From NCBI GenBank assembly GCA_000442015.1, contig KE561079.1, positions 45,194 to 65,193 on the forward strand: a stretch of 20,000 nucleotides of DNA, in the 5' to 3' direction. Every line of letters begins with the position of its first letter. The stretch's first letter is position 1. The stretch comes from Rozella allomycis CSF55. Its lineage: Eukaryota. Below the pieces are notes generated by a model that saw only the letters and a program-made list of their open reading frames with translations, searched no databases and was not told the origin of the DNA. The position numbers and the translations under genes are program-made. Positions 334-20,000 of this stretch are shown one piece after another.

Positions 334-792
334 TTATCTGGACATGGCCAGTTTTTGTGACAGAAATTCTTTTTGAGATAAAAGTATTTGCTTTTCCTTT
401 TCAAGAACTAAAATATGTTGTGACGCCGAGGTTAATATTTCCCATTTGCTTGCTCTGGTATGCATTTGTAGCGAAGGGGTAGACATGCGAAGTTCATCAA
501 ACAAGTCTTTCAATTCTTTTCTTCTTCGTCTTTCTGCGAGTTTATGTGATTCTTTAGACTCTAGTTTATTACTAACTACATTTGTGCTGGCTTCCGAATT
601 ATTTATGCTTGGTAAAATATATGGTACAGTAAGTCGAATCGCCGGCAGTGACATTCTGCGGCTCAAGTCATCTCCAGGCGGAACTTGCAGAGAATTATGC
701 AAGGAATATTCTCGTGGCAGGCGATGATAAGGAGGATACGCAAGAGAAGGTGTGATTTCGTTCGCTTTTAAACCATCTATATTCGGTTGCAT
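334..792 (-). CDS. bHLH(-zipper) transcription factor, fungal Esc1-like / Max-type
   Basis: SHKLAERRRRKELKDLFDELR...RASKWEILTSASQHILVLEKEK gives the basic region with E-box H-E-R residues, helix-loop-helix, and a short coiled coil. It closely resembles the HKLAERKRRKE.K.LFD.L...SKW pattern of fungal Esc1-like bHLHs. Confidence 0.85.
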   Translation of the reverse strand: MQPNIDGLKANEITPSLAYPPYHRLPREYSLHNSLQVPPGDDLSRRMSLPAIRLTVPYILPSINNSEASTNVVSNKLESKESHKLAERRRRKELKDLFDELRMSTPSLQMHTRASKWEILTSASQHILVLEKEKQILLSQKEFLSQKLAMSR

Positions 793-892: not shown

Positions 893-2763
893 ATGAGTCA
901 ACAACAAAGCTTTTTTGATGATTCATCTTCCCATTCATCCACACTTCAATCGTGGGTTTTCTCAGATGATGATGTCCAGTTTCAAAACAATGTCGCACAA
1001 CAAGCACTAGACGATTTTGAAGAAGAATACGAAAATGGTACAGAATATAAGGAGTGGAGGAAAATTTTGCCCAGGTTAAGGTAAGGTTGAAAGTAATTGC
1101 TTTTCAGATTAAAAGGCTCTTCATTGCTATGTTTAAAAAGTTCTTATACGGAACAAGCTCCCTTGTCACCGTATGTCTCTCGGATTCCTAAATTGAATCA
1201 GCAGAATAATTATAGTCCCTTGGAAAACGTACTCTTCTGCAGCAAATTATCTCAAGATGACTTTTTTAACAGCAAGACGCCATCAAAAACACTAGAAGGA
1301 CCTGATGTGCATTTAAGGATAGGCGAAAAGTTCAATTTTCCACACAAAGATATTGAAGAATATTTTGATCGATTAACTAATGGTGATGGATTTACTATTG
1401 ATTATTTTGCCATTTTAACAAATTCTGAAGGCGATGTGACCTTATGTCCATATGTTAGTGATGTCAGCTGGTTCGAATTGTTGTCAGCTTTGAACTCAAA
1501 AACAGAAATGTGCTTATGGTGTAGATTACCCATTGGTTTAGCAGAAGAAAACCTTAAATTTTCTTGTTCAGTTTTCTCAACGTTCGGATTATTCTACTTT
1601 GTACCAGGAAACATGAAAGGCAGGCCTGTCCCTTCTATATTTGATTTCTTGCCGTTTAATTTAACTTCCAGTGCCCCAGTCATGGAAGTTTGTGATCTTA
1701 AAGCTACAATCATTTTTGACAATGTCAAATCCTATTATAACAATAGAGGGGAAGAGATTATTTGCAAAGATGGGGAGGAAGAGGAAATAATTGTTAATGA
1801 CTATCCTTTAGAAGCCCAGATCACAAGGTAATAATAAGAAGTCTCTGAAACAGCAATGACATGAATTTGGAGACGATTGACCAAAAATATGAAGAAATTT
1901 GGCCGCAAGTAAGTTTGATATATGAATTGAATCAGATTTTGGAGCTTGCGCTGCCTAAATTAAATTCACAGCAAGAATGTTTTTCGTCATGTAATGACGC
2001 CGTTTCGACCACCACTGGTGGTACCTTGTCTTTCAAATCGTTATCGAGCGTTGAAAACACTAAATTAGTAGAATTAATAACAGAAAAGTAATTAATAATC
2101 TTAATAGAGAAAAGCAAGACGGCCGTCACCTCATTTGCAACCTGAATCTAAACAAGTGATGCGGCCATTCAAATCGGCTAGGCCAATCACGGAAACCCTA
2201 AAAGAAACGCCAACTAAATCTATTTTAACCAAAAAGTACAAATTTTACATCAGTAATCATTCAAGTGTACTCAGGCCTTTGAAATCTGCATATCCTAGAG
2301 TTCTATCTGCTATTAATACAGAAAAGTAACTATAGCAGATTAATTCAAAAGAAATTTCTATAGCAGGCCCGGAACTGGTCAATTTTTTAGAAAGCTTCCA
2401 CCTCTTCCTCCATTAAATAGAGACAGAGAAAGAGAAAGAAGTGGGATTATAAATTTCGACGGAAAAAGTAGTTACCAAAATTCTAAGGTAGATAAGTTAC
2501 TAAATATTTTTACAGAATAATGACGAGGGCGCCAGACAGCCGGGTGGCAAATTATCTAGGTATGAATCAGCAATGCAACCTAAACTAGATCTGCATGGTC
2601 AACTCGGTCTCAAAAAGAAGACAAAAAGGAAGACGCCTTGAATCTGGATACAATAAAGGGAGTGAGTATGAAGATAAGTACTTTTATTTAATTGATTATA
2701 GCAGATAAACTTGCTACTAGCTTTTCAAAGCCCAAGAGAACAGTGTCGTTTCAAAATCACTAA
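893..2763 (+). CDS. Multi-exon FAM149-like (DUF3719) protein, putative cilium-assembly factor
   Basis: Frame-consistent introns 1081-1107, 1828-1853, one ambiguous near 2068/2088-2107/2118, 2326-2351, 2488-2515, 2560-2588 and 2678-2704; stop TAA 2761-2763. N-terminal S-rich SW..DD...AQQ....EEE...EW...LPRLRLKG matches the DUF3719 pattern. The later EEIICKDGEEEEIIVND matches the second FAM149 block. The tail is low-complexity with RPxS/T and LPPL motifs. Confidence 0.6.
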
Positions 2764-2801
2764 ATAAAGTTATAATTAATCAAAAATTATAAATCAAATA
2801 T

Positions 2802-3984
2802 ATGAGCAAGTTTGAGTGTAATTTTAATAGTTTTTTTGTTTGAGATTGGTAGTGAACGACATTGTTTGGGAAAATTCTAAAATGAGCGAAAACTCGGCAT
2901 CGTCTTCCGTTTTTTCTCTCCTTAGCTCCTTGACCAATTTAGTGTTTGATGATAAAAGACCCAAGACTCCAATAAAGCAAGAAGCAAAATTGTCCAAAAC
3001 TAGCACGCCAAAATCGGTGAAAAATGATGCTACCAAAACTCCTTCGAAAAGTTCGAATTCTATGATACATTCTACTCCAAAAAAGAATGCTACAACTTAT
3101 TGGAAAACTCCCGTGAAAAAGGCAGTGTCAACTTTGAAGAATGCAATTAATGTTCATCAGGAGGCTTTTCATTCAGAAGAAACTGAAGAGGAACTCTTTT
3201 CTCCTTCGTTTCATGTTGATGAAGCAGAAGATGAAGAGGATTTGACAGCGTATATGACAGCTGAAGACGAACTTCCTCAAGACGATGATATGTTTAACCC
3301 ATTTACATTTATTAGGTATTTACCTGACTTGTCGAATTTCCCACCTAGAAAAGTTAATTTGCCTCGAAAAACCAGGAGTTGCCCACCGATAACGCTGGTG
3401 CTTGATTTGGATGAGACCCTTGTTCATTGTTCAACGACTCCATTGAAAACATATGATCTTACTTTTGAAGTTGAGTTTAATAGTGAGCATTACACTGTTT
3501 ATGTATTGAAAAGACCATTTTTGCAAGAATTCTTAGAAAAGGTGTCGACAATGTTTGAGGTGGTTATCTTTACGGCATCACAAAAAGTTTACGCGGATAA
3601 ACTTTTGAATATTCTTGATCCTAATAGGAAATATATAAAGTAAGAGCGAGTTTAAAGTTTTATAGGCACCGTTTGTTTAGAGATAGTTGTTTGTATGTGC
3701 ATGGGAATTATTTGAAAGATTTGACGGTTCTTGGAAGAGATTTAAGCCAAACGATAATAGTTGATAATGCACCCCAGTCTTTTGGGTTTCAAGTACGTTG
3801 AATTTCGAGAGTGAATAAGTTGAGCAATGGAATACCAATAGAGTCATGGTATGGCGCTAGAGATGATACCCAACTTTTGTCAGTTTTGGAATTTCTTTCA
3901 GATATTGTTGGTGTGACGGACGTTAGACCTACCATAGAAAATGCATTCCGACTAAAAGAATTGGTCTATGGAAGACAAAAATAA
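2802..3984 (+). CDS. CTDSPL2: NIF/FCP1-homology HAD phosphatase, CTD small phosphatase-like 2 (SCP4) type
   Basis: Motifs [25 protein letters not shown] (DxDxT), [56 protein letters not shown] and NGIPIESW. Introns 3640-3665 and 3793-3819. Start is uncertain: ATG 2802 with a first intron (2816-2844 or 2818-2852), or ATG 2882. Confidence 0.88.
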
Positions 3985-4012
3985 ATAGTTTCATTGAGAG
4001 GAATTTAAGTTT

Positions 4013-6040
4013 TTATTTATTTTCTAACAAAATAAACAAAGAATTTCTTTCTCGCTTGTTAATCATCACGTTAATCAAATTTCTACCCTTCCATACAAGA
4101 AATTTGAAATCTTCAGCGCAAAGGATCATTGATCCTGTTGGTATGTCTATTTATATTTCTAACAATAAATTGTTACCTTCCAACCCGTAAGATCTACTAA
4201 GCTCATGGAACCTAGTCTTTTCTTTGGATAAAATTAGTTTCGCATCTGCCATGTCTATCTTCATACTTCTATGGGAAATGAATGGACTAATAGAGTATAA
4301 AGCTTCCTGATGAAATCTAAAAGGACAAAGTCTAACGTCATCAGCAGGTCCATCGTGTCTAGAAAATGTTTTGACTCCTGTATTTATAACACAAAGCTTT
4401 TTGGCTTGTCTGGATTCCAAATACTCTCTCACTTTATTTGATACAAAGTAAATTGAGTTGGGAATACAATAAACCTTGTCGTTCCTTATCACAAAGTTGG
4501 AAAATGGAAAACTCTCAGAAAATCCATAAAATGATTTAACAGAATCAAGATAACTTTGATTGGAAAGGAATACAAAAGGTTCTTCGCGATATCCATTGCT
4601 TGGTCTTTGTGGCTCTAAAATAACAGCGTCAGTATTTGAAATTTCGCATTTATCACCCTGGTCCTTTGAATCACTCTCAAGACTATTTAACATTTCTTGG
4701 CATTCCTTTAATTCGTCTTTCTCTTTCTTCATTTCTTCAGTAGCTTTACATATTTCTTTCATGTTGCCTATCTTTTCAAAGACAGCTACAAAAAACCCTC
4801 CTGTGTTTTGGTCGTGTGGAAGAAACCTCATACATCTTTCCAAAGGAATATTTTCTTCTTCAGTGGGAGGAAATATTGACTTTTTCCATTTGACGTATTT
4901 TGAAGGAACCTGATCATATGAGTCATAAACATCTCCCTGGGTATCCATGATCTATTAGAATTCCAAATTAAAATTACTTTCCAAGTTTTAAGCCCAGGAC
5001 GAGCCTTTAAATCTTTGTGCTTCAAAGTGAAGCCATCAAGTAACTTTAGGGATTCAGGATAAAGACGTAAAATTTCAGCAACAACCGCTTCATTCTCGGC
5101 AGGATTAAAAGAGCAAGTGGAATAAACTATTCTTCCTCCTATTCTTGTAAGCTCACAGCCTCTTTGCAATAATCGTAACTGGAGAGGATGCAATCCAATA
5201 CCCACAGAAGGCGTCCATTTTCTCCACATGGCCATGTTTTTTCTAAGTGTACCATCGCCACTACAAGGAACATCACACAAAACCCTGTCGAATAAAATTG
5301 GATTCTTCTCATTGTCATTTAAAGTTGGAAATTGTGTTCCATCATGATTAGTAACGAGTAACATTGGAGAAAGCATTCGCTTTGCTTGATGGACAAGAAG
5401 ATACGCTCTTTTATGGTCAGCATCATTAGCAACAACCATTCCATCTGATTAACGTAAAGCAAAAATATTTACCTGGAAATCCTTCGGAGCATTGTTGATG
5501 CATCAACTGCAGAATCTGTGTAGTCTTAGAACCAGGAGACGCACACATATCCAACACACGATGCTCTGGCTTTAGATCCAGAAATAGTGGGGGGATCATA
5601 CTAACCGCCTCTTGCCGACAAATATTTCCAACATCTGTTTCCGCAACTAAATACTGATGGAACTGTTTATGTTCAGGACTCTTTCGTATTCCAACAGCAG
5701 ATACCTGGACTTGATACGCAAGATCACCAGGGAACCAAGTCAACGGACTCACATTACCTAATGTAGGGAAATGCTTTTTATAAAGTTGCTCCCTCATTTC
5801 ATTACACAAAGCAGTAGATGGCGCTGACAATCGAAAAGATACAGGCAATTTGGTCTTTAAGATCTCATAAAATTCTTCAAATTCTTCATCTGGAACTATT
5901 TCGTTTAAACGGTAAAATTTTTCAAACTTCTCATTCTTGTATTCAATATTATACGAATCGTAGGTCGTGTTCACTTTATCTTGGTTTGTTTCATCGACTT
6001 TAGGTTTTTTATGGTTTCTTGAATTCTTTTTGCGACCCAT
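4013..6040 (-). CDS. NCL1: tRNA (cytosine-5)-methyltransferase NSUN2/Trm4 (Ncl1)
   Basis: Motifs RQEAVSMIPP, VLDMCASPGSKT, FDRVLCDVPCSGDGT, YSTCSFNPAENEAV and RFLPHDQNTGGFFVAV. Minus-strand introns 5445-5472, 4952-4977 and 4147-4176 join the ORF pieces in frame; stop at 4013-4015. Confidence 0.95.
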
Positions 6041-6209
6041 TTTGACTTAGCCACGTCTGCGCTATTGTTCAATAAGTAATTGCAGCAGATAATGAAAAAT
6101 GTGAATCATTGAATTGCAATTATATGTTTCACGTTGAAATTGCTCTTCATCTTGTTACAAAACATAATGAGGACAATACTTAAATTTGGTTTTTGTGTGG
6201 CTTGGTCAT
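6041..6209. promoter_or_regulatory. Putative 169-bp bidirectional promoter (NCL1 / GPN3)
   Basis: Head-to-head start codons at 6040 (-) and 6210 (+). Confidence 0.4.
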
Positions 6210-7143
6210 ATGCTCTACGCATTATTTGTCATAGGACCAGCAGGAAATGGAAAAGTAAAATAATATGAATATAGAAAATATAAGACCACTTTATGCTCCA
6301 CGCTGATAGAGTATTTGCAGAACTCTAAGCGATCTGTTCACCTCGTAAATCTTGATCCAGCGGCAGATTATTTTGAGCATATTGAGCCTTCGATAGATAT
6401 CAAAGATTTAGTTACAGTGGATGAAGTTATGCAAGAATGTAATTATGGACCTAACGGTGGACTTTTGTATTGTTACGAGTAAAGAACATTAAAGATTATA
6501 AGTAAGACTTCTTTTTGATAATGTGGATTGGTTGCAAGAACAAATAGGTGGCTATTCGGAGGATTTTCTTATAGTTGACTGTCCAGGTACCATTTTTATT
6601 TTGAGGAGATGAGGTCAAATTGAGCTATATACTCATGTACCCTACATGAAACAAGTGATAGATCTTTTCCAAAACAAATTTAACTATCGCGTTTGCGGGG
6701 CTTATTGTATGGAAAGCTCATTTGTTGTAGATCCATCCAAATATTTTTCTGGAGTGCTTTGTGCCATGTCGGCAATGATCCAATTAGAAATTCCTTATAT
6801 TAATGTCATGACCAAGATGGATCTAATGCCCAAAGATTCTCCGATGGTTGATAGGTATTAATCTCTCTCGTCAATTATTAGGTTTTTGGATGTTGACACT
6901 AGTCTTTTGCTAGAAACTGCCAATAGGGCTTCACACGACAAGTATCGAAGTTTGAACGAAACGATCGTCAGATTGATTGATGATTATTCAATGGTCAAAT
7001 TTGTTCCTCTGGATCGCACTGATGAAGAATCAATTGAAAGGTTAATGCTAGAGATTGACAATGCCCTTCAAGTGTGGGATGATGAAGAGCCGAAAGAAGG
7101 AAAAGAATTTGATCAAGGAGAAGATTATGACAATGACGACTAA
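6210..7143 (+). CDS. GPN3: GPN-loop GTPase 3
   Basis: P-loop GPAGNGKTT, VNLDPAA, YGPNGGL (GPN loop), DCPGQIELYTH, SAMIQLEIPYINVMTKMDL and LIDDYSMVKFVPLD. Introns 6255-6284, 6479-6506, 6587-6613 and 6855-6881. Confidence 0.92.
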
Positions 7144-7201
7144 AAATAAACTCATTTTTCTAGATGACCTTCTTATTTTCGATGCGTAAATTTCCGAAAA
7201 A

Positions 7202-9897
7202 ATGTTTCCGAACATTGAAAGAAATATATCCCCAACTTTGATAATCGACAAAAAATTAAACATTAAAAGTTTGAGTAATTCATTTTACACAAAGCTTGGG
7301 ATTGACACTAGTGTTATATTCAGGAACCTCAAGGATCATTTAAAGCCTATTGAGCCTGAAATATATGGAGTTAAATATTTGAATGATTTAACATACCTTA
7401 AGAAGACAGATTATTCGGTTCTTGATTTCAATGGACATGAATTATACCATTTAGAAGTGTATCCAGACTTGCGANCCATTTAGAAGTGTACCCAGACTTG
7501 CGACTTCCGGTCACATTGGAAAGGGGAGATCAAAAGATGGAAGAAGATTTCTTTATTATAGAAGTACAAAATGTGTATTGCTGCTTGAAATCATTGATCC
7601 TTTTAGAAAGATGCACATCGATATTAAAGAAGAGTGGAATATTTATTACCAACCATGAAGGCTACATTGAGATGACAAATTCATTAGCAGATTCAATGTT
7701 TAAAGTTTCAGATATATCAGAGTCGGAAGATAAGAATGTTTTGAAGTTTTTCAAGGCCGAAGTGAAAGAGTTTATTAAGCAAGTAAAGGAGACAGGCAAG
7801 CCCAAGAGACAGATGAGAACAGTGGCTTATGTTCCAGATGGACAAACAATGACAACAGATTTTGATATAGATGGATTTGAAATATGTGGTGAGTGGACAT
7901 TTGTGATCCGAGTGACGGACACAAGAAGCCATTCATTTGGAGAGTTAGAATTCCAGAGTGTGGTAGATACGGCAGTTGATCCCATCTTGATAGCGAATAG
8001 CACAGGCATAATTCAGTTTGTAAATAAAGCGACAGTTAAAAATTTTGGATTTGAGGAATCAGAATTGTTGGGTGAAAATTTGAATATGTTGATGCCATCA
8101 CCTGATAAAGAAAAGCATGATGGGTACATGTTGAACTATAGACGTACTAATAAGCCTAAAGTGTTAGGCATTGGCAGAGAAGTTGTTGCAAAGAGAAAGA
8201 ATGGCGAAATGTTTCCAGCAGAATTGGCAGTGAGTGAATTCATTCATGATGATGAAATAAAGTTTACAGGGATTTTACGTGATATTTCAGAAAAGAAGAA
8301 GGCCCAGCAGAGGATTTTGGAAGCAGAGAAGGCGATATACAAGACTGAAGCTGAATACAAAGCAAAGTCTGAAGTGTTTGCATTTATGAGTCACGAGCTT
8401 AGAACACCAATGAATGGAGTACTTTGTATGACGACAATGTTGAGAGATACACCCTTGACGCAAGAACAAAGTGAAGTTGTTGATATTATTAGAGCCTCTT
8501 CAGAGAATTTACTTCATGTAATTAATAACATTTTAGATCTTTCAAAAATTGATGCACAAAAAGTAAATCTAGAACAAATAGATTTTGATCTTCATTCAGT
8601 AATTCTTTCAGTTTTAGAAATCACCCAACCAACAGCTAATAAGAAGCAAGTAGAAACATTTTTAGATTATCCAAATAATTTATCTTTAATAATGAATGGA
8701 GATCCAACAAGGTTACGTCAAGTAATTATGAATCTTGTTGGCAATGCTGTAAAGTTTACAGATAAAGGACACGTATGCGTTCAAGCGTACAAGGAAGAAA
8801 ATAAATTGAAAATTATTGTTAAAGATACAGGGATTGGAATCCCAGAGTCTGATTTACCACACCTATTTGATCATGTTTATCAAACTAAAGCAGCTGTAAC
8901 CAGATCACATGGAGGAACAGGTTTAGGTTTAACTATCAGCCAAAGACTTTGCCAATTAATGGATGGATCGATTTCTTGTTCTTCTCTTGTTAACCAGGGT
9001 AGCACTTTCACAGTAGAAATTCCTTGGAAAGATCCTCTTAAATTCGTGGATACGATTTTCTCAAAATTAAAGATATCTAAGATTGTTCTGTTCCATTCAA
9101 ATTCATTAGTTTCACCTCAAATTGTTTCTGACTTTGTCAAGTGTGGCTGTGTCGTATTAGATTTGTTACTTTTACATCCAAATGAAATTGATTCTGATGT
9201 TGATTTAATTATTATAGACGTTAACACTTCAGGTATTGAAAGACTTCTTTCAGACGATTGGAAAATTATTATTGAAAAACATAAAGCAAAAATTATCTTA
9301 ATGCACAACTATGACACTTTTATTGATTGGAAACAATTTAGAAACATGGGCCTAAATTTTGTTATACGAAAGCCTTATTCTCTTCCAAAAATTCTTTCAA
9401 TTGTTGCTAAAATGCAATCTGTTGAACTAAAAGAAATTAGCCTCTTTAACAGCAATCAACTAAAAATATCAACAATATTTACTAGCGCCGAAAAAGACAT
9501 TCTAAAAAGACTAAAGGTTCTTGTTGCTGAAGATAACGATATCAATCAAACTATAATGCGTTCATTCCTCTTAAAGTTCGGTATTAATCAAGTGCAAATG
9601 GCCGGTGATGGAGTAGAAGCTCTTGAATTGTTCAAAAGATCTAAATATGATCTTGTTTTAATGGACTTGATGATGCCTAGGATGGGTGGTGTTGAAGCGG
9701 CAAAATTAATCAGAGAATACGAACTATTAAAGCAATTAGAGAAAACTATAATTATTGCAGTCACGGCAGACGTAATCATAAACCCCAAAAGTGCTTTTCT
9801 TGACACTATGGAAGACGCTATTACAAAACCAATTGATCATTATATACTGGCACAAAAGATTCGTAAATATTTTCTTGATAATACTAAATCGAAATAA
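7202..9897 (+). CDS. Intronless hybrid sensor histidine kinase: degenerate PAS, FixL-like heme PAS, HisKA, HATPase_c, degenerate receiver, receiver
   Basis: H-box MSHELRTPMNG (His codon 8392), N-box NLVGNAVKFT, G1 DTGIGI, G2 GGTGLGL, and receiver VLVAEDN...DLVLMDLMMP (Asp codon 9664)...TAD...KP. ORFs 7202-7483 and 7486-9897 become one 888-aa frame once the 28-bp duplicate plus N at 7475 is collapsed. Confidence 0.93.
7447..7503. repeat. 28-bp direct duplication flanking a single N (probable unmerged contig overlap)
   Basis: ccatttagaagtgtaTccagacttgcga-N-ccatttagaagtgtaCccagacttgcga. The single T/C difference is synonymous (TAT/TAC). Confidence 0.9.
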
Positions 9898-9961
9898 ATA
9901 CTCATTCATTTTTAAATTTTATTCTTTGTACTTTGTAGCTATTTTGTAAACAAACTACAAT

Positions 9962-12900
9962 ATGAGCCAAGAAGACAAATCAACCACAAAAGACGATTCA
10001 TTTTATTACGATTTCAATGAATTCAAATTGGCTCCAAAAACAACTGAAAAACCTTTAGGGACATTCAAAATTTCGTACGCCACTATGTTTCATTAGATTT
10101 AGCTATTCCTTTGGCTTTGAAAGTTCTAAGAGGCAAAATGCGTTATATTTAAACGAAAATACTGTCATTACAAGCTCAGGTAGCTCCTTGGTGTTTCTGG
10201 ATCCTAAAAATCTCTCTCAAGACCATGTTTCTCTAGACAATGATTCATCCATTAGTTGCATATGCACAGATTCTACTAAATCTTATTATGCCGTTGCTGA
10301 AAAAGGCGTAAATCCGCGTGTATTTATATTTGAATTCCCAAGCAAAAAATTATTCCGTGTTCTCAAAGGAGGTGCTGAAAGGCAGTTTAGTTGCATGAAT
10401 TTTCATCCAAATGGAAATTTATTAGCAACTGTTGCTGGATCACCTGACTTTATGTTGACAATTTGGGATTGGAAGCAAGAAAAGATTGTTTTAAGGTACA
10501 AGGCATTCTCACAAGAAGTTTACAATGTTGCCTTTTCACCGTTCACGGAAGGATTACTAACTACCTCTGGATCGGGGCATATCAAGTTTTGGAAAATGGC
10601 GCACACATTTACAGGCTTAAAATTGCAAGGGCAGTTAGGGAAATTTGGGTTATATGAATTGTCAGACATTTATTGTTTTGCTGAAATGCCTGACGGAAAG
10701 ATCATATCCGGGAATGAGGCTGGTAATTTGTTGATCTGGGAAGGCGGGTTTGTTAAATGTGAAGTGACAATGAAGAACAAAAAGCCAATGCATCAAGGTG
10801 CTATAAGAGTTTGCATCGTTCAAGAAAACGAGGTGATGACGGCTGGAGATGATGGAATGGTACGTACTTGGGATTTGGAAACAATTGATGGCGCAGAGAC
10901 GGTGGATGCTGGCGGTAATTTTGAGATGGAACCAAATGAAGAATTTACCATCTTTAAAGATGCCAAAGTAAATTTATTTAGTAGTTACAATAGATTGTTA
11001 CTATGACTCAAACTCCTGGTATTGTTGGCGAATACTTGGTTCAAGATGAGCAAGGATATTTATGGAAATTTCAAAGCAAAAAGAGAATAGTAGATAAAGT
11101 TTTCTCATTTCATTCTGGAGTGGTTAATGCAATTGATGCAGCCCCTATAAAGCATGAATGTGTTAGCATAGGAAAAGACGGAACATTAAGATTATATGAC
11201 TATATAGATCATATAATGCTACAAAGAATAAAGTTTTCTTCAAGCGGGACGTTTGCATGCTACGCAAACAAGGTAATATCATTGGTTTGTCCACATAGAA
11301 ATTTGATCCCTTTGGACAAACGATATTAGCTGGATTTGAAGATGGAATTATTAGAGTTGTTAAGGTGTTGGGAGAGGGCATAAAGACGAGTTCAATAATG
11401 AAGCCCCACACTACTGCCGTGAAGCAAATGGCATTAAATTCTGAAGGCACTTTTCTATGTTCACTTTCTTCTGACAATGAAATATTCTTTTTCCAAGTGC
11501 ATGAAACATTGAATCCAATTGGTTTTCTTAGTTTGAAGAGACAAGTGTATTCTGTTTCCTGGTCTGTTGATGTCCCCAATCATTTGTATGTCTTGTTAGA
11601 TAATGAAGTTCACATGTATACATTCCCTAGAATAGAGAATATTGATAATAAACTAAGTTTTGAATTCCAATTGATTCCCAAAAAGTATAATTTGGATTGG
11701 ATGGCAGCAAGACACAAAATAGAACCGCCAAAGGAAACTGAAGGAGAACAAGAAGAAAATAAGATGAAGAAGATTCCAGACCCTGTAACATTTACACCAG
11801 TTTCATTTTGTTGTTTGCCAAATGATAAATTGCTTGTTGCAATAAATTTATCAAATGGTTTATTTGAAGTTTTAGAATGTCAATGGAAGGTGGCAGGGAA
11901 CGGCAAGAGCATCCAATTGTGCCAGGGTGTTCTAACGATGATGAAAATATCAAATTCATTTAAATATTTGACATTTGGGATGGTTGATGGAACAGTTGCT
12001 TTTTGTGAATACGAAACTAACGCAACAATTTGGAGATCTCATTTGCATCAAGTAGAAAATGGAAGAGTTTTTTCAGTTGTTGGTAGTTTTGATGACAGCA
12101 TGTTATTCTCATGTGGAGAAGATGGCAATGTTTTTGTGTTGAGAAATACAGGGAATGCATTGAAGAATGAAATTGGTAAATTGAAATCAAATATAGAATA
12201 GTTCCTGATGCCAATTCAAGTGGGACATTCAAACATGTCAATGGCAATGTAGAAGAGATTTTCAATGAAATGAATCCAAATGGATTTTCATTGCAAGAAA
12301 CGAAATTAAGAGCAAAACTGGATGCTGAAAAAGAACAAGCAGAGTTAAAGAAACAAGTAAATTTGTTATTTAAAGATTAAAAGTATGTGAGAGACAATGT
12401 GAGAGAATTAAGAAATGCATTTTTATCTATTGTTCAAGAAAATGCAAAACTGCCTCCAGAATTGGCTCTGCAACCAGAAGAATTTGATGTTGACCCTGGT
12501 CTAGTTGAAAGAATTAGTAATTAAAATAAATATTGTGAAATAAGATTTGGAAATTGAAGAGAAAAAGAACAAATTGAAAGAAGAAATGAAAGAAGTGACA
12601 GAAAAAGCATTTGCAGGACCTAAAAAGTTGATTGAGAAATTTCTGGATCCAATTGAAACGGAATATTTTTCAGTTAAAGCGTTAAAGTCTGGAATTTCAG
12701 TTTCAACATTTCGATCATTGAAATCTTCATTTGATGAATCACAATTTACTTTGATTCAACAAAACAAAGAAAACGAAGAAAATTTGTTTTTTGATTTAAA
12801 GAAAGAATTTGGAATTGAAGAAGCCCCAGCGACTACGATTGTTCAAAAAGAAAAAGTTGATGTGAAGGCCAAAAGAGAAGCAAGAAAACAATTAAGAGCT

Positions 12901-15103
12901 GAAAGGGCTCAACTGTTTCAAGAATTATTAGCGTCCAAACCAGATGAAAATTATCAAGATCCCCATGATTTAGCTGCAATAAAGTACGCAATGGCTAACA
13001 TGGGTGATTATAAACTTAAAAGTAGTTCAAACTATATTGTGCCAGAGAATGAAAGAATAAACGCAGACAAAAAGAAGAAACAAATGACTCTTTTAAAGGA
13101 AAGCATTAGAACCTTAAAACAAGTAATATTCAGTTATGCCATTCAAAGGACTTTAATTCTCAGATTTTTAAATTAAAGTCGTTTAAGGGTTTGCTAATAG
13201 AAGAAATAAAGTCAAAGAATGAATTAATTAAAAAAATAAACAAGGAATTGTCTGAATTGGATGATAACGTAGATTTCCAAATTTGGGAACCTGAAAATGA
13301 CCAGGGTTTACAATTTGAAAAGCGATTTGAAATAACGCAAGAAGAACTTGAAAACTCTAGTAAAATATATTTTTATTTCTAATTTGAAAATAAACCAAAC
13401 TCGAATGATAATGAAAATATTTTGGGCACAAATTTACCGACGCAGATAATCCTACCTGAAGATAAACAAGAAAAGAAGAAACAAAATGTTAAAAAGAAGA
13501 ATGAAAATGCATTGATAATGGAAGAAAAAAAGAGAAAAATAGAAAACTTAATTGAAATAAGAACAAACTTGAAAAGAGAAATAGATTCAGCAGTTGATGA
13601 TTTTGATTCAACTTTGAATGATATAAGAAAGGATAGAGTTCTTTTAGAAGGGGATTTAATTGCTTGTGAAATGAAATATTTATTACTTTTCAAAGAATGG
13701 CAACTCTTGAAAGAATTTGAAGTCAATGATAATCTATTAGCTGATAAACTAAAACACAAAAGAAATGAAAAAACTGAAATATCTGGAAAGCTTAATGAAT
13801 GCCAAGAGAAATTAATTGTTAAAAAAGTTCAAGTTGAAAATATTGTGAAAAATGGGAAAAATATTTTCGATCAATTTCTTCAACTCATTGGAGAAAACAA
13901 TAAAAATGAAGAATTCCTCACAAAACTCTTTAAAAGGAAAATTAAACGATCAAAAAAGAATTCAATTTCTTCTACAAATGATGATAATGGTAAACATCCT
14001 TTTTTCAGTTTATTAGAATCTTCTGATGACGATGAATTAGATTTTGATGACGATTCATTCGATGAAGAAAATGATGAAGATGAATTCGACGAAAATTGTC
14101 CAAAGGATTGCGATTCCGAAATTTACAATCAAGTTTTAACTTTAAGAGAAAAACGTTTAGATCAAGAAGATTTACTAAATGAAATTCAAAAATCAGTCGA
14201 AGTAAATAAATTATTTTATTTTTTATTTGTCAATGAAAAAAGATCATGAATCCTTGTTGAAAAAGGAAAAGATCATTGATTCTTCATTAAGCCAAATAGA
14301 AAAGGAAATTCAAGAATTTCAATTCCAAAAACAACAAAAATTAAATGAATTAGACATCATTGTCCCTCTTCGCTTAAATCAATTAGAAATATCAGATGAT
14401 TCAATATCTCAAGCCCTGGTATTTACAAAACAAGGAATCGCCAAACTAAAGCAAAGAAATATTGATTTGAATCAAGTAAAAGACTCATGCATCTTCAATC
14501 AAAGGAAAAATCTGAAATCAAAAGAAATCATCGCGACTTGAAGAAAATGCACGTGAGTCTTATAAAATCCAAAAAGGAAAAGCAATCCAAAGTATTTCAC
14601 ATTAATTAAAATAATAAAGTTGCTTGAATTAGAAGCAAAAGCTCATGATGTTCAAATGCTAAAATTTGGCAGAATAATCGATTTGGACAAATTAGAACGA
14701 ATGAGCACTAACAAAGCCCTGGATGAAGCAAAAGAAAAAAATCAACAAGAAGAATTAAAAAGAAAAAAAGAATTGGAAGATCTTGAAGTAATGTTTACCA
14801 AACATCTCCAAAGGATCAAATATATCAACTTCGAGAAGATCTGATTAATGTTACAAGAGAAAACACTAGCAAAATGGAAACATTTATTAATTTAACAACT
14901 TCAAAAAGAGACCTTGAGACAGCCTTGAACCAGAAACAAAAAATCATGGTAAGAAATTCTTCATTTTAAAACAGACATCCAAATATAAAGGTTTGGAAAA
15001 TATGGATAATAAAGACATAAATCATCTCAAAGAAATCGCTCGCAAGCAATCATCAGAAATTAAAATGCTAAAACAATTGATTCATGATTACGTCAAAAAA
15101 TAA
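9962..15103 (+). CDS. CFAP44: Cilia- and flagella-associated protein 44 (WDR52): N-terminal WD40 repeats and C-terminal coiled coil
   Basis: Motifs YSFGFESSKRQN, LATVAGSPDFMLTIWDWKQEKIVLRYKAFSQEVYNVAFSP, GHIKFWKMAHTFTGLKLQGQLGKFG, MGDYKLKSSSNYIVPE, LREKRLDQE, KQQKLNELDIIVPLRLNQL and VQMLKFGRIIDLD. Fourteen reconstructed introns: 10075-10102, 10968-10993, 11273-11298, 12176-12201, 12357-12383, 12517-12544, 13123-13148, 13360-13386, 13990-14016, 14202-14229, 14476-14504, 14592-14619, 14788-14813, 14949-14974. Confidence 0.93.
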
Positions 15104-15697
15104 TAAACAATTTTTACTCTCTACGATGATACACTTCATTTTGTTTTTTATAAATAAAAGTGTTAAAGTTTAAATCAAATATGTTGAGAATTTGGGTGCA
15201 GGGAGTTCTTCACACCTAAGGTTGTCAATGGCGCGGCTAAACGTCTGGCTTGGCAACTGGCAAGTAAGTAAGAATGTTAGTTAATTTATTTACCAGTAGT
15301 TTACGGTCCTATATGGGGTTCCCAGTCTCCAGATGGTAAGTCACCGAGATGCGGTTGCGGAAAAGGACTGCCAGCCATTTTACAACCATCCAGAACTGAG
15401 AGCAGCAAAGAAACAAAAAGCCGGCAAGGAAACCGCCAATCTTTCCAGGGTCGATGAAGAGATACCGATGGATTTGATTTGGACAGCGTCATTGCCCAAC
15501 CGAAGAGGTGGAAGTTGATGTATCCAAAAAGATTGGGAATTCACCAAGTGCAATAAAGTCTTCTGATTATTTGGATTGTTCATTAATGTCGTTACCTTGT
15601 ACGGACTTGGTTCTTCAGAGGTAGAGACAATCGCTCTACTTCTGCATTGCTCGATCACTTTGGTTTATTTGGAATGAAGTCTGAGTCTAATGCAAGG

Positions 15698-15891
15698 TGT
15701 CGTACCAGGGATTCTCATCCCACATTTCACAGAGGGATTCTCATCCCATACATCTTAGAATAATTATCAAAGAGAGGAGTCACTATTTATAGAAAAGACC
15801 AACATATAAAACTCTAAGGAGATATCAATAAATAGAACGGAGGGTAATCCATTCTCAATCGACATCAGTTTTAACTCTTTTTATCTTACGA
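15698..15891 (+). mobile_element. LTR copy 1 (internally deleted, 3'-truncated)
   Basis: Starts TGTCGTACCAGGGATT like the copies at 16426 and 16709. Collinear with copy 3 up to TTATCTTACGA but lacks the 65-bp segment 16792-16856. Confidence 0.75.
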
Positions 15892-16019
15892 TTAAACCTA
15901 ACATACAACAAACAATCAAATCCTTAGATGATAATAAAACAAATTCAACCTACTTCGATTTTCTCACCTCACTGAAGCATATGCAGATCATTTGAAAGAC
16001 CACCTAAAACCTGTATCAA

Positions 16020-16230
16020 TCCATAAAAAGATTTTGTACACTTCCTAATGCATTCATAAGGATCCATACAGGCGACACCCCCAGCCTTCAAGACATAATA
16101 TCCCACCGTCTTAAACCAATAGTGACTGAACAAGTTGAAAAATGGACGAAAAATGGTTTGATTAAGCAACTGAATGGACATTCTGGATTGGAATAGTTCC
16201 TGGCTCGTTGTAGCTAATGTCGCGGACGAT
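16020..16230 (+). pseudogene. Degenerate Ty3/gypsy pol fragment (N-terminal part of reverse transcriptase)
   Basis: Stitched translation FCTLPNAFIRIHTGDTP / PAFKT*YP / HRLKPIVTEQVEKWTKNGLIKQLNGHS / DWNSSWLVVA matches the gypsy RT start (..I.TGD..P....Y....L...V..QV..W...G.I.....WNSP.LVV), with frameshifts and a stop. Confidence 0.65.
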
Positions 16231-16425
16231 CTTGAATTAATATCGGTACAATTTGTGTTCGAGACTTNATTTTTGGCCTGAAGGAAGCATAAATCATATC
16301 TCCGAACCTCTCTAAAATATATCACGTTATAAATAAATTATTTTAAAGAATAAAGTTACGGTTACCGAGCGATTTCCGATAATATACTATTTCTTTTTCC
16401 TTAAATTTTCTATGAAGGATACTAT

Positions 16426-16520
16426 TGTCGTACCAGGGATTCTCATCCCATATTTCACAGAGGGATTCTCATCCCATACATCTTAGAATAATTATCAAAG
16501 AGAGGAGTCATAATTCTCAA
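16426..16520 (+). mobile_element. LTR copy 2 (5' part only, cut by the N at 16521)
   Basis: Near-identical to the first ~85 bp of copy 1, then continues like copy 3 (GTCATAATTCTCAA) until the N. Confidence 0.75.
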
Positions 16521-16696
16521 NTCATCAACATACACATACTAATCAAGTAAATCATCCCTTATGATGCTTGGATATACATTATTATCATATATATGTACAA
16601 AGAATGGTACTTTACCTGCGGGATAATCTTCATTTTCAGGAATGGAACTATCGAAAGAGATAGGAAATTTCAATATCTTAAACGCCTCCAGATACT

Positions 16697-16708
16697 GGAA
16701 GGGGGTAA
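16697..16708 (+). other. Polypurine tract (plus-strand primer) of an LTR retrotransposon
   Basis: GGAAGGGGG-TAA lies immediately 5' of the TG start of LTR copy 3. Confidence 0.7.
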
Positions 16709-17014
16709 TGTCGTACCAGGGATTTTCATCGCATCTCATAGAGGGATTTTCATCCCACCTTCCTTAGAATAATTATCAAAGAGAAAAGTCATAACTCTCA
16801 AAGGATCTCTTAATCCTGACGGATCTCTATTCTGATACTAATTATAGAAAGGGATACTATTTATAGAAAAGACCCACATATAAAACTCTAAGGAGATATC
16901 AATAAATAGAACGGAGGATAATCCATTCTCAATCGACATCTGTTTTTACTTTTTATCTTACGAATTATTATCCAATTTACGAGGATTAAGGTTCTATGAG
17001 CGCATGGAGCGACA
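16709..17014 (+). mobile_element. Full-length 306-bp 3' LTR (copy 3)
   Basis: TG...CA ends with an imperfect 10-bp terminal inverted repeat (TGTCGTACCA vs revcomp of TGGAGCGACA = TGTCGCTCCA, 8/10). Preceded by a PPT. Contains TATAAAA (16879-16885) and AATAAA (16901-16906). Confidence 0.78.
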
Positions 17015-17509
17015 AAAGGGAAACTGGATCAACATAAAAGTAGATGCAGATATGCCTCATATACATGCGTTGATTGCCTTGTTCATTTTAAAGGAACTGA
17101 ATATAGATCCCATACAACTTGTATGACCGAGGCTGAAAAATATCAAGGAAAAGACTATAAAGGGCCCAAAACCAATAATAATGACACTAATAAAATAAAA
17201 CCCGAAACGGTTGTAAAGTCTGATGTAAGTAAAGAGGAAAATATTGCTGAAAATGATGAAAATAAAATAGATCTCAAATCTATGACAAAAAATATATTTG
17301 AAAACTCGAAGGTATCACTATTTTTATCTCAAAATGTAGTCTATGACTTTAAGCACTTTTCAAAAGAAGTTGGTAAGCAAATTAACAGCTGGTCGAATGG
17401 AAAAGAAAAAGGCCAAATCATTCATAAAGAAACATGTAAAAATAATCAAAGTTAATAATAGATTTTAATCAAGTTTGAGGAAGAGCACATAGGATTACAT
17501 TTTAAATAA
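17015..17509 (+). CDS. LYAR-type C2HC zinc-finger protein (YCR087C-A/UPF0743-like), 5'-truncated at the LTR boundary; possible pseudogene
   Basis: Upstream of the tracked ATG 17123 the same frame reads KGKLDQHKSRCRYASYTCVDCLVHFKGTEYRSHTTCMTEAEKYQGKDYK, which is the zf-LYAR signature. Introns 17312-17339 and 17436-17461; stop 17507-17509. The initial M..F.CxxC is absent. Confidence 0.85.
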
Positions 17510-17557
17510 CAATAAACCGCACATTTTCTGTAACTAAGGATATTGCATTCCTTTGGC

Positions 17558-20000
17558 ATGAAATCCTTCGCATTATTAGGTATTCTTTATTTGGCATTTA
17601 ATGTTAAATGCTCACCGGCGTACTCAATATCAGGTAGTTTTGATATCATTTGAAAACAGGCGTGAAGTCGATGTTTAACGTATCACTGGCCGGTCCATCT
17701 TACAATATGACCTCGGCATCTATGACAAAACTTTTAAACGGCATTTCTCAAGATTATGGTATTGGTTTATGGCTTAACTTATCAACTCTCTTCAGGACAA
17801 CTGTTCAACCACTTGATAATATCGCTTTCCTTGATGAGAATAATGATCCAGATCCCACCATCGCAATGAATGAATTTTTGGTAAATACAAATCATATCAA
17901 TTTTATAGCCTTCAATAATAATGACTACCGTTTGTTTTGCCCTATCCTTGGGGTGCATTTTTATCGCTCCATTTGTGTATTGCTGTTGCAAATGGCGAAG
18001 AAAAAATTATGAAGCAAGTTTAAAAATACCACTGCTGTTTTTGTTCGTATTTTCGTCAATCTTAATGTAATATCCTTAGTCCTACTTAAAGAGTGCATGT
18101 ATCGTAGTAAGCTTTCTAACTAATGATGTTTTTGGGTCTTCATTTCCCAGTATTTTTAATGCAACGAATAATTTAATAATTGTGGCAAACAATAAAGCCA
18201 GTGATATAACATCATTGAGCAAAGGTATATTATTGACAATGGGACCAACAATTCTGAATTCTTTGCAGAAAATTGATCAGATTCCAGTTAATTCTTTAAT
18301 TTCGAATTTGACAAGCGAAGGGCACTCCCTAATCACTCAACTTGTTGTCCTGAAAAACAGTCTGGACACGACAAAGTCGAGTGGGGCAAATGTTATTCAT
18401 CATTTTAATCAACTCTCAAATTATTCTAGTATTTATCAAGTAGAAGCTTCTTCTACAGCTAACCTCTTAAATAATCTAACGCTAAACCAAACTGTTGGTC
18501 CGTATAATAACATCACTTATTCCCTGTATTTGACGGGACCCCTAATTGACATTTCTATGTCTAACTCTTCCATTGATATTTCTGTTTTTTCAAATTCTTT
18601 AGATTCTTTGAATAATATCCCCAATATATCCACAATAATTACAAGCATCAACACCACCTTTCTTGATTTGAATGCAACAATTCACTCTACTATTTCTAAT
18701 GTCACAGATTCAACAAATACAGCTGTAAGAAACCAATTAGATGGAATAAATAACTCAGTCTTGCCCCTCATAAACAACAATTTAGGGCCCATCAATTTAA
18801 TGCTATCTGAATTCAAAGAAGCCGTCACAAATGCTTACAATAGTTATTTTTTGCGATACAATGAATATAGGTAAAAATCATTAGCGATCAAAAAGAGATC
18901 TAATTTAATGTGCGCTATATTTGTGTTGGTGGCACTGTCTTTATTTTTATGCATGATGTCTTTATTATTTCGCTCTGCGAAATTGATGAAGGTTTCCACT
19001 CAGGTGGGTGTGTGTTGTAGTGGCATTTTATGGTTTTTGTGCGGCATATGTTTCATTATTGCTTCTTTGTTGTCATTATCTTGTAATTTGGTGACTGTTA
19101 AGAAATTAAAACCAATTTCCCCATATTTTTCAGAACTTGGAATCCCCCTGTCCCCTTCACAAATAGATGATATTTACGAACAGCTAGATGCATGCAACGG
19201 AAATGGGACTTTATTTAACATTATCGAAAGTGCTGCAAGCATAACTATTCCAGATATTAAATCTCAAGTAGAGTCTGTTTTAGAAAATTTTGACTTCAAT
19301 TCACTCGCAGATTCTATAGGCCTTCAGTAAAATAGTTAATGATTCCTTATTAGAAATTACTTTAACTTTCCAAGCGACCTCGATACACTTGATTCTTCTG
19401 TTAATTTAAATATTTCATCATCGACTCTCTTCAACACTTCCGATTTATCGATAATGCACACCTCTGTTCAGGACTTAAGAAATATTACTATGTATTTAAA
19501 TGATACAAATAATGCCACAACTCTGCAATACTACGTTCCATTAACTAGCAATGATCAAGATGTATCCATCGCAGATTTCCGCCTAAAAATATCTGAAATT
19601 ATAGACCGTATAAATATCATTAATAATACTATACTATCTGGAATTGATGTTGAGGTGGCATCTGTAAATTCTTCCTTTCAAACATTTGCGTCCGCGGCCA
19701 CAAATTTGGTTAATAATACCAACACGTTATTGTTAAAAAAGCGTGACATGCTCAACTATGCGAACTTGTACATCAATGAAACGAAAAACGAAGTAATCAA
19801 TTCATTCACAATTAATAGATCATCACTCGCATAATTCCAAACATTGTAAGTGACATAAGACTGTTTGCCGGAAACGCATCGGTAGCAATGGATGCTGTTG
19901 GTGAATGTAAATCAATATCTACAAGTTTAACTGCATTTGAAAATTCCATATGTATTATATTACAGTAACTTTTTACATTATATTAGTATTTCAGGAGAGG
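17558..20000 (+). CDS. Prominin-like multi-pass membrane glycoprotein (partial, runs off the window end)
   Basis: Signal peptide MKSFALLGILYLAFNVKC. TM1 is followed by a Cys cluster (FVYCCCKWRRK), then TM2, a large N-x-S/T-rich loop, TM3/TM4, and a second large loop with LDACNGNGTLFNII and VGECKSISTSLTAFENSIC. Introns 17634-17659, 17881-17908, 18067-18093, 18871-18897, 19327-19353, 19793-19818 and 19965-19994. Confidence 0.75.

Follow-up and report, generated by a model that had tools for sequence, protein, structure and literature searches.

Introns of 26–31 nucleotides, mostly with an adenosine at nucleotide 23, in a window of the Rozella allomycis genome

Genes and introns of the window

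We have analysed a 20-kb stretch of DNA from Rozella allomycis CSF55 (20,000 nucleotides of contig KE561079.1, here called the window), and describe in it a set of candidate introns that are 26–31 nucleotides (nt) long. The window is AT-rich eukaryotic nuclear DNA with about 35% G+C, and it uses the standard genetic code. An exon of the gene for an NSUN2-type RNA methyltransferase shares 98% identity with a protein that carries the label Rozella allomycis CSF55, and the matches ranking after it are about 60% identical. Gene identities were taken from Pfam scans of long open stretches. All coordinates are window positions, and the introns sample six to seven genes. The genes and introns are collected in Table 1, and individual introns are named below by the position of their first nucleotide.

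Table 1. Genes and candidate introns of the window. Forced, required by the reading frame; A23, adenosine at nucleotide 23 of the intron; 3n, length a multiple of three; ungapped, junction ungapped against homologues. Pfam numbers are the profile positions on the two sides of the junction.
Feature	Position	Strand	Length (nt)	Ends	Remarks
bHLH gene	337-792	-			Pfam
gene C, unknown protein	893 to about 2763	+			reconstructed frame
intron, gene C	1081-1107	+	27	GTAAG..CAG	forced; T at +23; T-rich 3' part
intron, gene C	1828-1853	+	26	CAG	forced; A23
candidate intron	1909-1935	+	27	GTAAGT..CAG	3n, stop-free; motif only; A23, first AG at 27
junction, gene C	2088-2118	+	31	AAG	one of four options
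intron	2326-2351	+	26	AAG	forced; A23
intron	2488-2515	+	28	GTAGA..CAG	forced; T at +23; TACTAAA at 11-17, then T-run
intron	2560-2588	+	29	TAG	forced; A23
intron	2678-2704	+	27	CAG	in-frame TAG at 24 equally frame-keeping; A23 is the A of that AG
NIF/CTD-phosphatase gene	2882-3984	+			Pfam NIF
intron, NIF/CTD-phosphatase	3640-3665	+	26	TAG	forced; NIF 81/83
intron	3793-3819	+	27	AAG	forced; AGs at 17 and 19 skipped; NIF 124/126
NSUN2-type RNA methyltransferase gene	6040-4154	-			Pfam RsmB-F
intron, NSUN2	5445-5472	-	28	CAG	P0121 joins exactly; RsmB-F 33/34
intron, NSUN2	4952-4977	-	26	TAG	P0121 joins exactly
GPN-loop GTPase gene	6210-7143	+			Pfam ATP_bind_1
intron, GPN-loop GTPase	6255-6284	+	30	AAG	forced; TAG at 20 skipped; exon 2 from ATP_bind_1 position 10
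intron	6479-6506	+	28	AAG	forced; AAG at 24 skipped; ATP_bind_1 72/75, split codon and one residue between
intron	6587-6613	+	27	GAG	ATP_bind_1 99/101, split codon between
intron	6855-6881	+	27	TAG	forced
hybrid histidine kinase gene	about 7203-9897				Pfam PAS, HisKA, HATPase, REC
CFAP44 homologue	9962-15103	+			Pfam and homologues
intron, CFAP44	10075-10102	+	28	TAG	in-frame TAG at 22 skipped; gapless against 7 homologues shown
intron	10968-10993	+	26	TAG	forced; ungapped
intron	11273-11298	+	26	TAG	forced; ungapped
intron	12176-12201	+	26	TAG	forced; TAG at 21 skipped; poorly conserved region
intron	12357-12383	+	27	AAG	forced; ungapped
intron	12517-12544	+	28	AAG	forced; ungapped
intron	13123-13148	+	26	AAG	forced; ungapped
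intron-like	13360-13386	+	27	GTAAA..CTAATTTG	TG end; in-frame TAA; A23
intron	13990-14016	+	27	TAG	3n, stop-free; CAG at 19 skipped; A23
intron	14202-14229	+	28	GTAAA..TTATTTG	TG end; frame change; A at +24
intron	14476-14504	+	29	AAG	forced; ungapped
intron	14592-14619	+	28	AAG	forced; ungapped
intron	14788-14813	+	26	AAG	forced; ungapped
intron	14949-14974	+	26	GTAAG..CAG	forced; ungapped
LYAR zinc-finger gene	about 17000-17455	+			Pfam
candidate intron, LYAR	17312-17339	+	28	TAG	motif only (A23, first AG at 28); unspliced frame also open
membrane glycoprotein gene J	17558 to window end	+
intron, gene J	17634-17659	+	26	GTAGT..CAG	forced
intron	17881-17908	+	28	TAG	forced; T at +23
intron	18067-18093	+	27	GAG	AAG at 25 skipped (4 open codons, against 259 for AG at 27)
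intron	18871-18897	+	27	GAG	AAG at 25 skipped (3 open codons, against 143 for AG at 27)
intron	19327-19353	+	27	TAG	forced
intron	19793-19818	+	26	TAG	forced
putative intron	19965-19994	+	30	CAG	TAG at 22; clear donor, stop follows at once; downstream exon outside window

Gene models were obtained by a global search using dynamic programming, in which a GTA donor, an AG acceptor and a length of 15–60 nt were required of each intron, and the longest open frame was sought with a penalty per intron. Naive enumeration of introns and greedy walks along open reading frames gave thousands of candidates, or spurious introns that bypassed true stops, and the global search was used instead. It gave complete frames for genes C, D, E, F, H and J, and the introns that it required were all 22–30 nt long. 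Curation of this output led to 38 intron candidates with a median length of 27 nt, made up of 12 of 26 nt, 12 of 27, nine of 28, two of 29, two of 30 and one of 31. Twenty-nine of these are forced by the reading frame. Three have an alternative acceptor in frame (2088, 2678 and 10075), two are stop-free multiples of three (1909 and 13990) and two end in TTG (13360 and 14202). The remaining two are the LYAR candidate (17312) and the intron whose downstream exon lies beyond the window (19965). About 17 of the 38 are also fixed to the residue by Pfam coordinates, a deposited protein model or alignments of homologues. A further candidate at about 10915–10941 (GTAAT.., with its first AG at 27 nt and a length divisible by three) was rejected; the residues that it would remove align with homologues.

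The initial annotation of this DNA had proposed tiny introns across the window, and this is confirmed at the level of sequence, where splicing them out would restore continuous proteins that have homologues. The deposited Rozella allomycis CSF55 protein P0121 was mapped to the window, and it joins exactly at both introns of the NSUN2 gene (5472–5445 and 4977–4952). Pfam coordinates are continuous over five introns, those at 3640, 3793, 6479, 6587 and 5472. When the spliced CFAP44 product was aligned with 10 homologues using MAFFT, 11 of its 14 junctions were ungapped and conserved, the remaining three being in gapped stretches of low conservation. A 22-nt form of intron 10075 would insert two residues that are found in no homologue. 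In DNA contigs of runs X4 and X5 one extra nucleotide follows position 13997, inside the stop-free intron 13990–14016. This fits an intron, because an insertion of one nucleotide would break the frame if the sequence were coding. Judged by the GT at the 5' end, the AG at the 3' end and the restored protein, these are best read as U2-type spliceosomal introns.

We have considered whether some or all of the short gaps are not introns, but artefacts of gene modelling on a draft assembly that arise from frameshift errors, pseudogenes or recoding. The window is draft sequence that contains three Ns and, at 7475, a duplication of 28 nt, two of the introns lack a terminal AG, and the introns are known here from DNA alone. 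Yet every one of the 38 gaps starts with GTA, 36 end with AG, and all fall at 26–31 nt although anything from 15 to 60 nt was allowed. Their junctions agree to the residue with Pfam profiles and homologues, and an independent deposited model has the same junctions. Moreover, three DNA runs contain the intron sequences, and no intron-less joints were seen in them. An origin in modelling errors is therefore extremely improbable.

The splice motifs of these introns are reduced. In position profiles of the 38 they come down to GTa and AG, without a polypyrimidine tract. All 38 begin with GTA, and 28 with GTAA. An AG ends 36 of them and a TG the other two; the acceptors are 13 TAG, 11 AAG, nine CAG, three GAG and two TTG. 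These numbers differ slightly from the 15, 10, 8, 3 and 2 counted earlier, as junction 2088 is now included and one of the previous introns is absent. Constraint is relaxed at −3 of the acceptor, where the base is A or G in 14 of the 36 AG acceptors. On the exon side of the donor, −2 is A in 28 of the 38 and −1 is A or G in 36. Introns are 75% A+T compared with 65% for exons, and GTAA occurs in exons 29 times on the sense strand as against 58 times on the antisense strand. Fourteen of the 38 introns have lengths divisible by three, in a set where detection of this class is biased, whereas such introns are depleted in Paramecium tetraurelia. Position 9 of the intron is G or C in 17 of the 38 against a background of 21% (p = 0.0008, uncorrected for about 20 positions), which may be noise or a second positional signal.

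Acceptor choice and the adenosine at position 23

None of the candidates is shorter than 26 nt. The previously reported range of 26–30 nt holds for all but junction 2088, which provides the single value of 31. In 35 of the 38 candidates, and in 29 of the 29 that are forced by frame, the acceptor is the first AG met from 26 nt onward. The rule had been put forward in the initial annotation; it does not extend to junction 2088 or to the two TTG introns. The eight skipped AGs cited in its support are all present, at 6274 (20 nt from the donor), 6502 (24), 10096 (22), 12196 (21), 14008 (19), 18091 (25), 18895 (25) and 19986 (22). In total there are 25 AGs that lie 12–25 nt from the donors, and for 23 of them fewer than 20 codons stay open. 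One of the remaining two, the in-frame TAG at 10096, is ruled out by homology, and the other, the GAG at 2109, stays ambiguous.

As a control we took the 128 GTA sites on the sense strand of exons. For these, the distance to the first AG not closer than 26 nt varies from 26 to more than 60 nt, and it falls at 26–30 nt in 24 cases. Among AG-ended introns 35 of 36 fall in that interval (Fisher p = 1e-18). The narrow length range is not a matter of chance, nor is it a by-product of base composition.

Junction 2088 had been set aside as ambiguous, and four options for it remain. These are an intron of 31 nt ending in AAG, one of 22 nt ending in GAG at 2109, one of 40 nt from a GTAG donor at 2068 to a TAG at 2107, and one of 27 nt ending at 2114. 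With the last of these the gene would end at the TGA at 2143 and a new gene would follow. The AG at 27 nt breaks the frame, and this is the sole junction that goes against the strict rule.

The most conspicuous feature of the intron interiors is at position 23 from the 5' end. This nucleotide is A in 33 of the 38 introns and T in the other five (binomial p = 4e-10 against the intron background of 37% A). When the intron interiors were shuffled 20,000 times, the count of A never exceeded 27 at any position, and GTA sites outside introns have A at +23 in 117 of 374 cases. Among the 30 introns labelled as frame-forced it is present in 26. The initial annotation, which reported no consistent branch point or polypyrimidine tract, had missed this adenosine and needs revision on this point. 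It was right in finding no CTRAY consensus: a YTRAY branch motif occurs in 12 of the 38 introns, at variable positions, and was rejected as the determinant.

The adenosine (A23) is anchored to the 5' end. It is found in 12 of 12 introns of 26 nt, and in 11 of 12 introns of 27 nt as against three of 12 with A at position 24. In the nine introns of 28 nt there is A at position 23 in six, compared with three at position 24 and three at position 25. A23 is likewise present in the introns of 29 nt and in the one of 31 nt. Anchoring at the 3' end was tried and rejected; position −5 is A in 24 of the 38 (p = 0.001), which is weaker than A23, and the excess there results from the 5' anchoring. The distance from A23 to the G of the acceptor is 3 nt in 12 introns, 4 in 11, 5 in six, 6 in two, 7 in one and 8 in one. 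AGs that contain A23 or directly follow it are unused, as seen in introns 6479, 18067, 18871 and 2678.

The combination of GTA, A23 and a first AG at 26–31 nt occurs at 61 sites on the two strands of the window, of which 31 are introns. The other 30 comprise 15 on the sense strand of genes, nine on the antisense strand and six that are intergenic. The three elements look necessary, but they are not sufficient. AT-richness and GTAA matter too.

Two of the introns end in TG, as had been counted before, and both terminate in A-T-T-T-G. Homology gives precise support to the one at 14202–14229. This intron separates two frames, and tblastn places residue 1492 of the chytrid homologue P0003 on both sides of it. 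Its spliced junction, VE/SMKK, is gapless against VEVLKK of the homologues in the MAFFT alignment, and the sole AG within 45 nt of its donor, at 41 nt, leaves five open codons. For 13360–13386 the first 70 nt from the donor contain no AG; its exact borders are inferred, as the homologues have gaps in this region. Provided that the assembly is correct at 13385 and 14228, it appears that a TG at the usual distance serves as a 3' site. TG 3' splice sites are documented in human U2-type introns processed by the major spliceosome (PMC2374985). The human sites are rare alternatives beside an AG, whereas the two among our 38 look constitutive and have no AG in reach. If confirmed, they would be rare examples of constitutive non-AG 3' sites.

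Recognition of the introns

We think it probable that these are U2-type introns at the lower size limit of the spliceosome, in which A23 acts as a branch-like adenosine set by distance and the first suitable AG is then chosen. A23 would be the branch-point adenosine, or the base where the branch-site machinery docks, and it would be picked by its fixed distance from the 5' splice site and not by a surrounding consensus. Counting from A23, the 3' splice site would be the first AG with its G 3 nt or more downstream. The minimal arrangement A23-N-A-G would then give the floor of 26 nt, and selection that holds the AG at 3–8 nt from the A would concentrate the lengths at 26–28 nt. A TG at the same distance would serve in introns with no AG in reach, as in the two cases above. 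In three of the five introns that lack A23, an upstream A followed by a T-run would provide a more classical layout. A23 together with a minimum spacing would account for the neglect of AGs at 19–25 nt and for the freedom at −3. In introns with A23, acceptor choice would reduce to the ordinary use of the first AG past the branch that keeps a spacing of 3 nt or more. The distance gauged by the ruler is most likely the one from donor to A23, and not that from donor to acceptor.

One alternative is a pure ruler from donor to acceptor, as put forward in the initial annotation. The first AG at or beyond 26 nt would be taken, no branch-type signal would be needed, and A23 would be a by-product. The use of that AG in 35 of the 38 candidates agrees with this, as do the scarcity and variable placing of YTRAY-type motifs and the purines at −3 of the acceptor. 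But the frequency of A23 greatly exceeds chance and the base is anchored at the 5' end, and a ruler that reads to the AG predicts no such base. Random sequence beyond position 26 would scatter the first AG, just as it is scattered downstream of exonic GTA sites. The narrow placement of the AG in introns therefore indicates that it is constrained relative to something upstream. Splicing chemistry, moreover, requires a branch nucleophile. We regard a pure ruler as distinctly improbable.

The branch could instead lie further upstream, at about positions 15–20, in degenerate sequence. A23 would then be an extended 3' splice-site signal, or an anchoring signal for a factor of the 3' site, and the floor would reflect the minimal distance from branch to AG. 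Three of the five introns without A23 (1081, 2488 and 17881) do have an A-containing motif at 15–20 followed by a T-run, and, judging by spliceosome structures, 3 nt would seem to leave little steric room between branch and acceptor. However, A is not enriched at any position from 12 to 21. Furthermore, a signal belonging to the 3' site should be anchored at the 3' end, while A23 is anchored at the 5' end. An upstream branch is on this evidence unlikely.

A number of points weigh against a branch-like A23 set by distance. The reading is drawn from one 20-kb window with six to seven genes. Five of the 38 introns lack A23; three of these (1081, 2488 and 17881) have the upstream A-containing motif and T-run, and the other two (14202 and 19965) have A at position 24. 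No sequence context is enriched around A23 in the 38 introns, so that pairing with U2 is not evident, and A23 may be some other positional determinant and not the branch nucleotide. A distance of 3 nt from branch A to acceptor G is, to our knowledge, shorter than any spacing that has been mapped. Twelve of the motif sites on the sense strand are coding, exonic decoys, although most of these are without GTAA and they are less AT-rich. The earlier proposal that introns are defined by length is accordingly upheld in part: a distance rule from the 5' splice site with a floor of 26 nt stands, but length alone is insufficient. Junction 2088, under a model with a single gene, fits neither the floor nor the first-AG rule, and the TG ends depend on the correctness of the assembly at 13385 and 14228. 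When a run labelled as RNA (X12) was compared with the whole window it gave six short pieces, which continue unlike the window and contain nothing of its genes, and none of the runs listed as matching window positions 7500–16200 is recorded as RNA.

In its widest form the reading would have the branch set purely by distance, at 23 nt, with the cut at an AG preceded by any base, or at a TG, 3–8 nt further on. About 20,000 introns would then be almost free of signals, and this regime would be the origin of the reduced splicing of microsporidia. We put this forward tentatively, as a possibility.

Other short introns, and further features of the window

How a spliceosome finds introns that are nearly free of signals is an open question, which has been studied in ciliates and recently in parasitic animals. 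Microsporidia are the sister group of the rozellids, and Rozella is the intron-rich sister of a nearly intron-less group. The introns of the window have a median of 27 nt (range 26–31, n = 38), reduced motifs and a fixed adenosine anchored at the 5' end. This design belongs with the known regimes of ultra-short introns, and is apparently undescribed for the rozellid lineage. GTA, an A at +23, choice of the first AG from 3 nt beyond it and a floor of 26 nt together make a simple rule that can be tested genome-wide. Gene finders of the standard type cope badly with such introns, and the rule could improve rozellid gene models.

The closest parallels in the portions of the literature available to us come from animals and ciliates. 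In myxobolid myxozoans and Dicyema japonicum the median intron is 22–27 bp, with GTa and AG signals and no polypyrimidine tract, and weakly conserved A residues are farther from the AG in longer introns (PMC13644364). The latter indicates anchoring at the 5' end. These introns and ours are alike in the 5'-anchored A and the reduced signals, and all the organisms are parasites. But myxobolids and Dicyema are animals, whereas the window is from a lineage related to fungi, with a single sharp A23 (33 of 38) and a floor of 26 nt. Among lineages with introns below 30 bp the available parts of the same paper name ciliates, microsporidia and dicyemids, and Rozella is nowhere mentioned in them. The introns of the ciliate Stentor coeruleus are 15–16 nt long, bounded by GT..AG, AU-rich and without a branch consensus, and their branch A is almost invariably the 10th nucleotide of 15 or the 11th of 16 (PMC9505925). 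An A at a fixed position is common to both systems. In Stentor, however, the spacing from A to G is fixed at 5 nt, while in the window it is 3–8 nt with choice of the first AG, in introns of 26–31 nt. Paramecium tetraurelia introns average 25 nt, are among the shortest known, and their recognition is poorly understood (PMC8997360); Paramecium is a ciliate with a different genetic code, in contrast to the standard code of the window.

Introns in Encephalitozoon cuniculi number a few dozen, are 22–76 nt long with GT-AG ends, and have strict 5' and branch-point motifs (PMC3629993). The window differs in being dense in introns, at about 2–3 per kb, with minimal motifs. The S23 gene of R. allomycis has been described with two putative introns of about 30 nt, in which premature stops occur and the 5' and branch motifs conserved in E. 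cuniculi are missing (PMC6349667). For the whole R. allomycis genome a supplementary table gives 6350 genes, 20623 introns and apparently 950194 intron bases, the meaning of the last column being our interpretation (PMC8476143). Division of these figures yields a mean intron of 46 nt, and as a check on the columns 20623 / 7,439,579 matches the 2.77 introns per kb given in the table. The medians of fungal introns run from 29 bp upward in a study with Rozella among its species, the species with the minimum being unnamed in the part available (PMC8042348). No description of a 26-nt floor, of A23, of a first-AG rule or of TG ends was found in the available portions of the Rozella intron literature; the 2013 genome paper (James et al.) may say more.

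In the CFAP44 gene, the N-terminal exon gave no near-identical match among deposited proteins of 553–2000 residues, and the best match of the C-terminal exon among cluster representatives is 50% identical, so that no deposited model showing a treatment of the TG introns came to light. This gene may be absent or in pieces in the public annotation, perhaps owing to the TG-ended introns, while the NSUN2 model is deposited. Relatives of a CFAP44 exon are found at 58 metagenome loci, with a best identity of at most 57%, which is too distant for a test of intron conservation.

The hybrid histidine kinase gene (7203–9897) is without introns over about 2.7 kb, where its neighbours have 2–3 per kb; it could be a recent retro-copy, the product of a transfer, or a matter of chance. 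At 7447–7503 an N at 7475 stands between two copies of 28 nt that are nearly identical. Run X1 has a DNA contig that covers 5616–7777 with 29 gapped letters, and once these 29 nt are removed the histidine kinase frames 7190–7480 and 7441–9894 join in frame. The duplication looks like an assembly artefact.

The region 15342–17342 is a very high-copy repeat, with a summed contig depth of 1e4–1e5 compared with about 80–700 elsewhere. It contains two Ns and direct repeats of 90 nt and 99 nt (15698/16426/16707 and 15782/16856), and a Pfam scan of open reading frames in 15300–16770 gave no match. It is probably a transposon that is non-coding or degraded, or else consists of fragments of long terminal repeats (LTR). 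No Rfam match was obtained in the window. Beside the repeat, the LYAR gene (16990–17460) seems to lack its first zinc-finger exon, the frame opening right after a stop at ~16995. It has a second candidate intron at 17436–17461, of 26 nt and with a perfect motif.

Another candidate intron of 26 nt with a perfect motif (GTAT.., A23, AAG) lies at 125–150, at the 3' end of a gene at the left edge of the window. It would link frame 0 upstream to frame 2 downstream, and both are open there. Finally, the DNA contigs of runs X1, X4 and X5 differ from the window by many single bases and a few insertions or deletions, for example by 6–25 differences per contig, as well as deletions of 11 nt at 15127 and 3 nt at 15139. 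This suggests haplotype or strain variation of about 0.5–1%.

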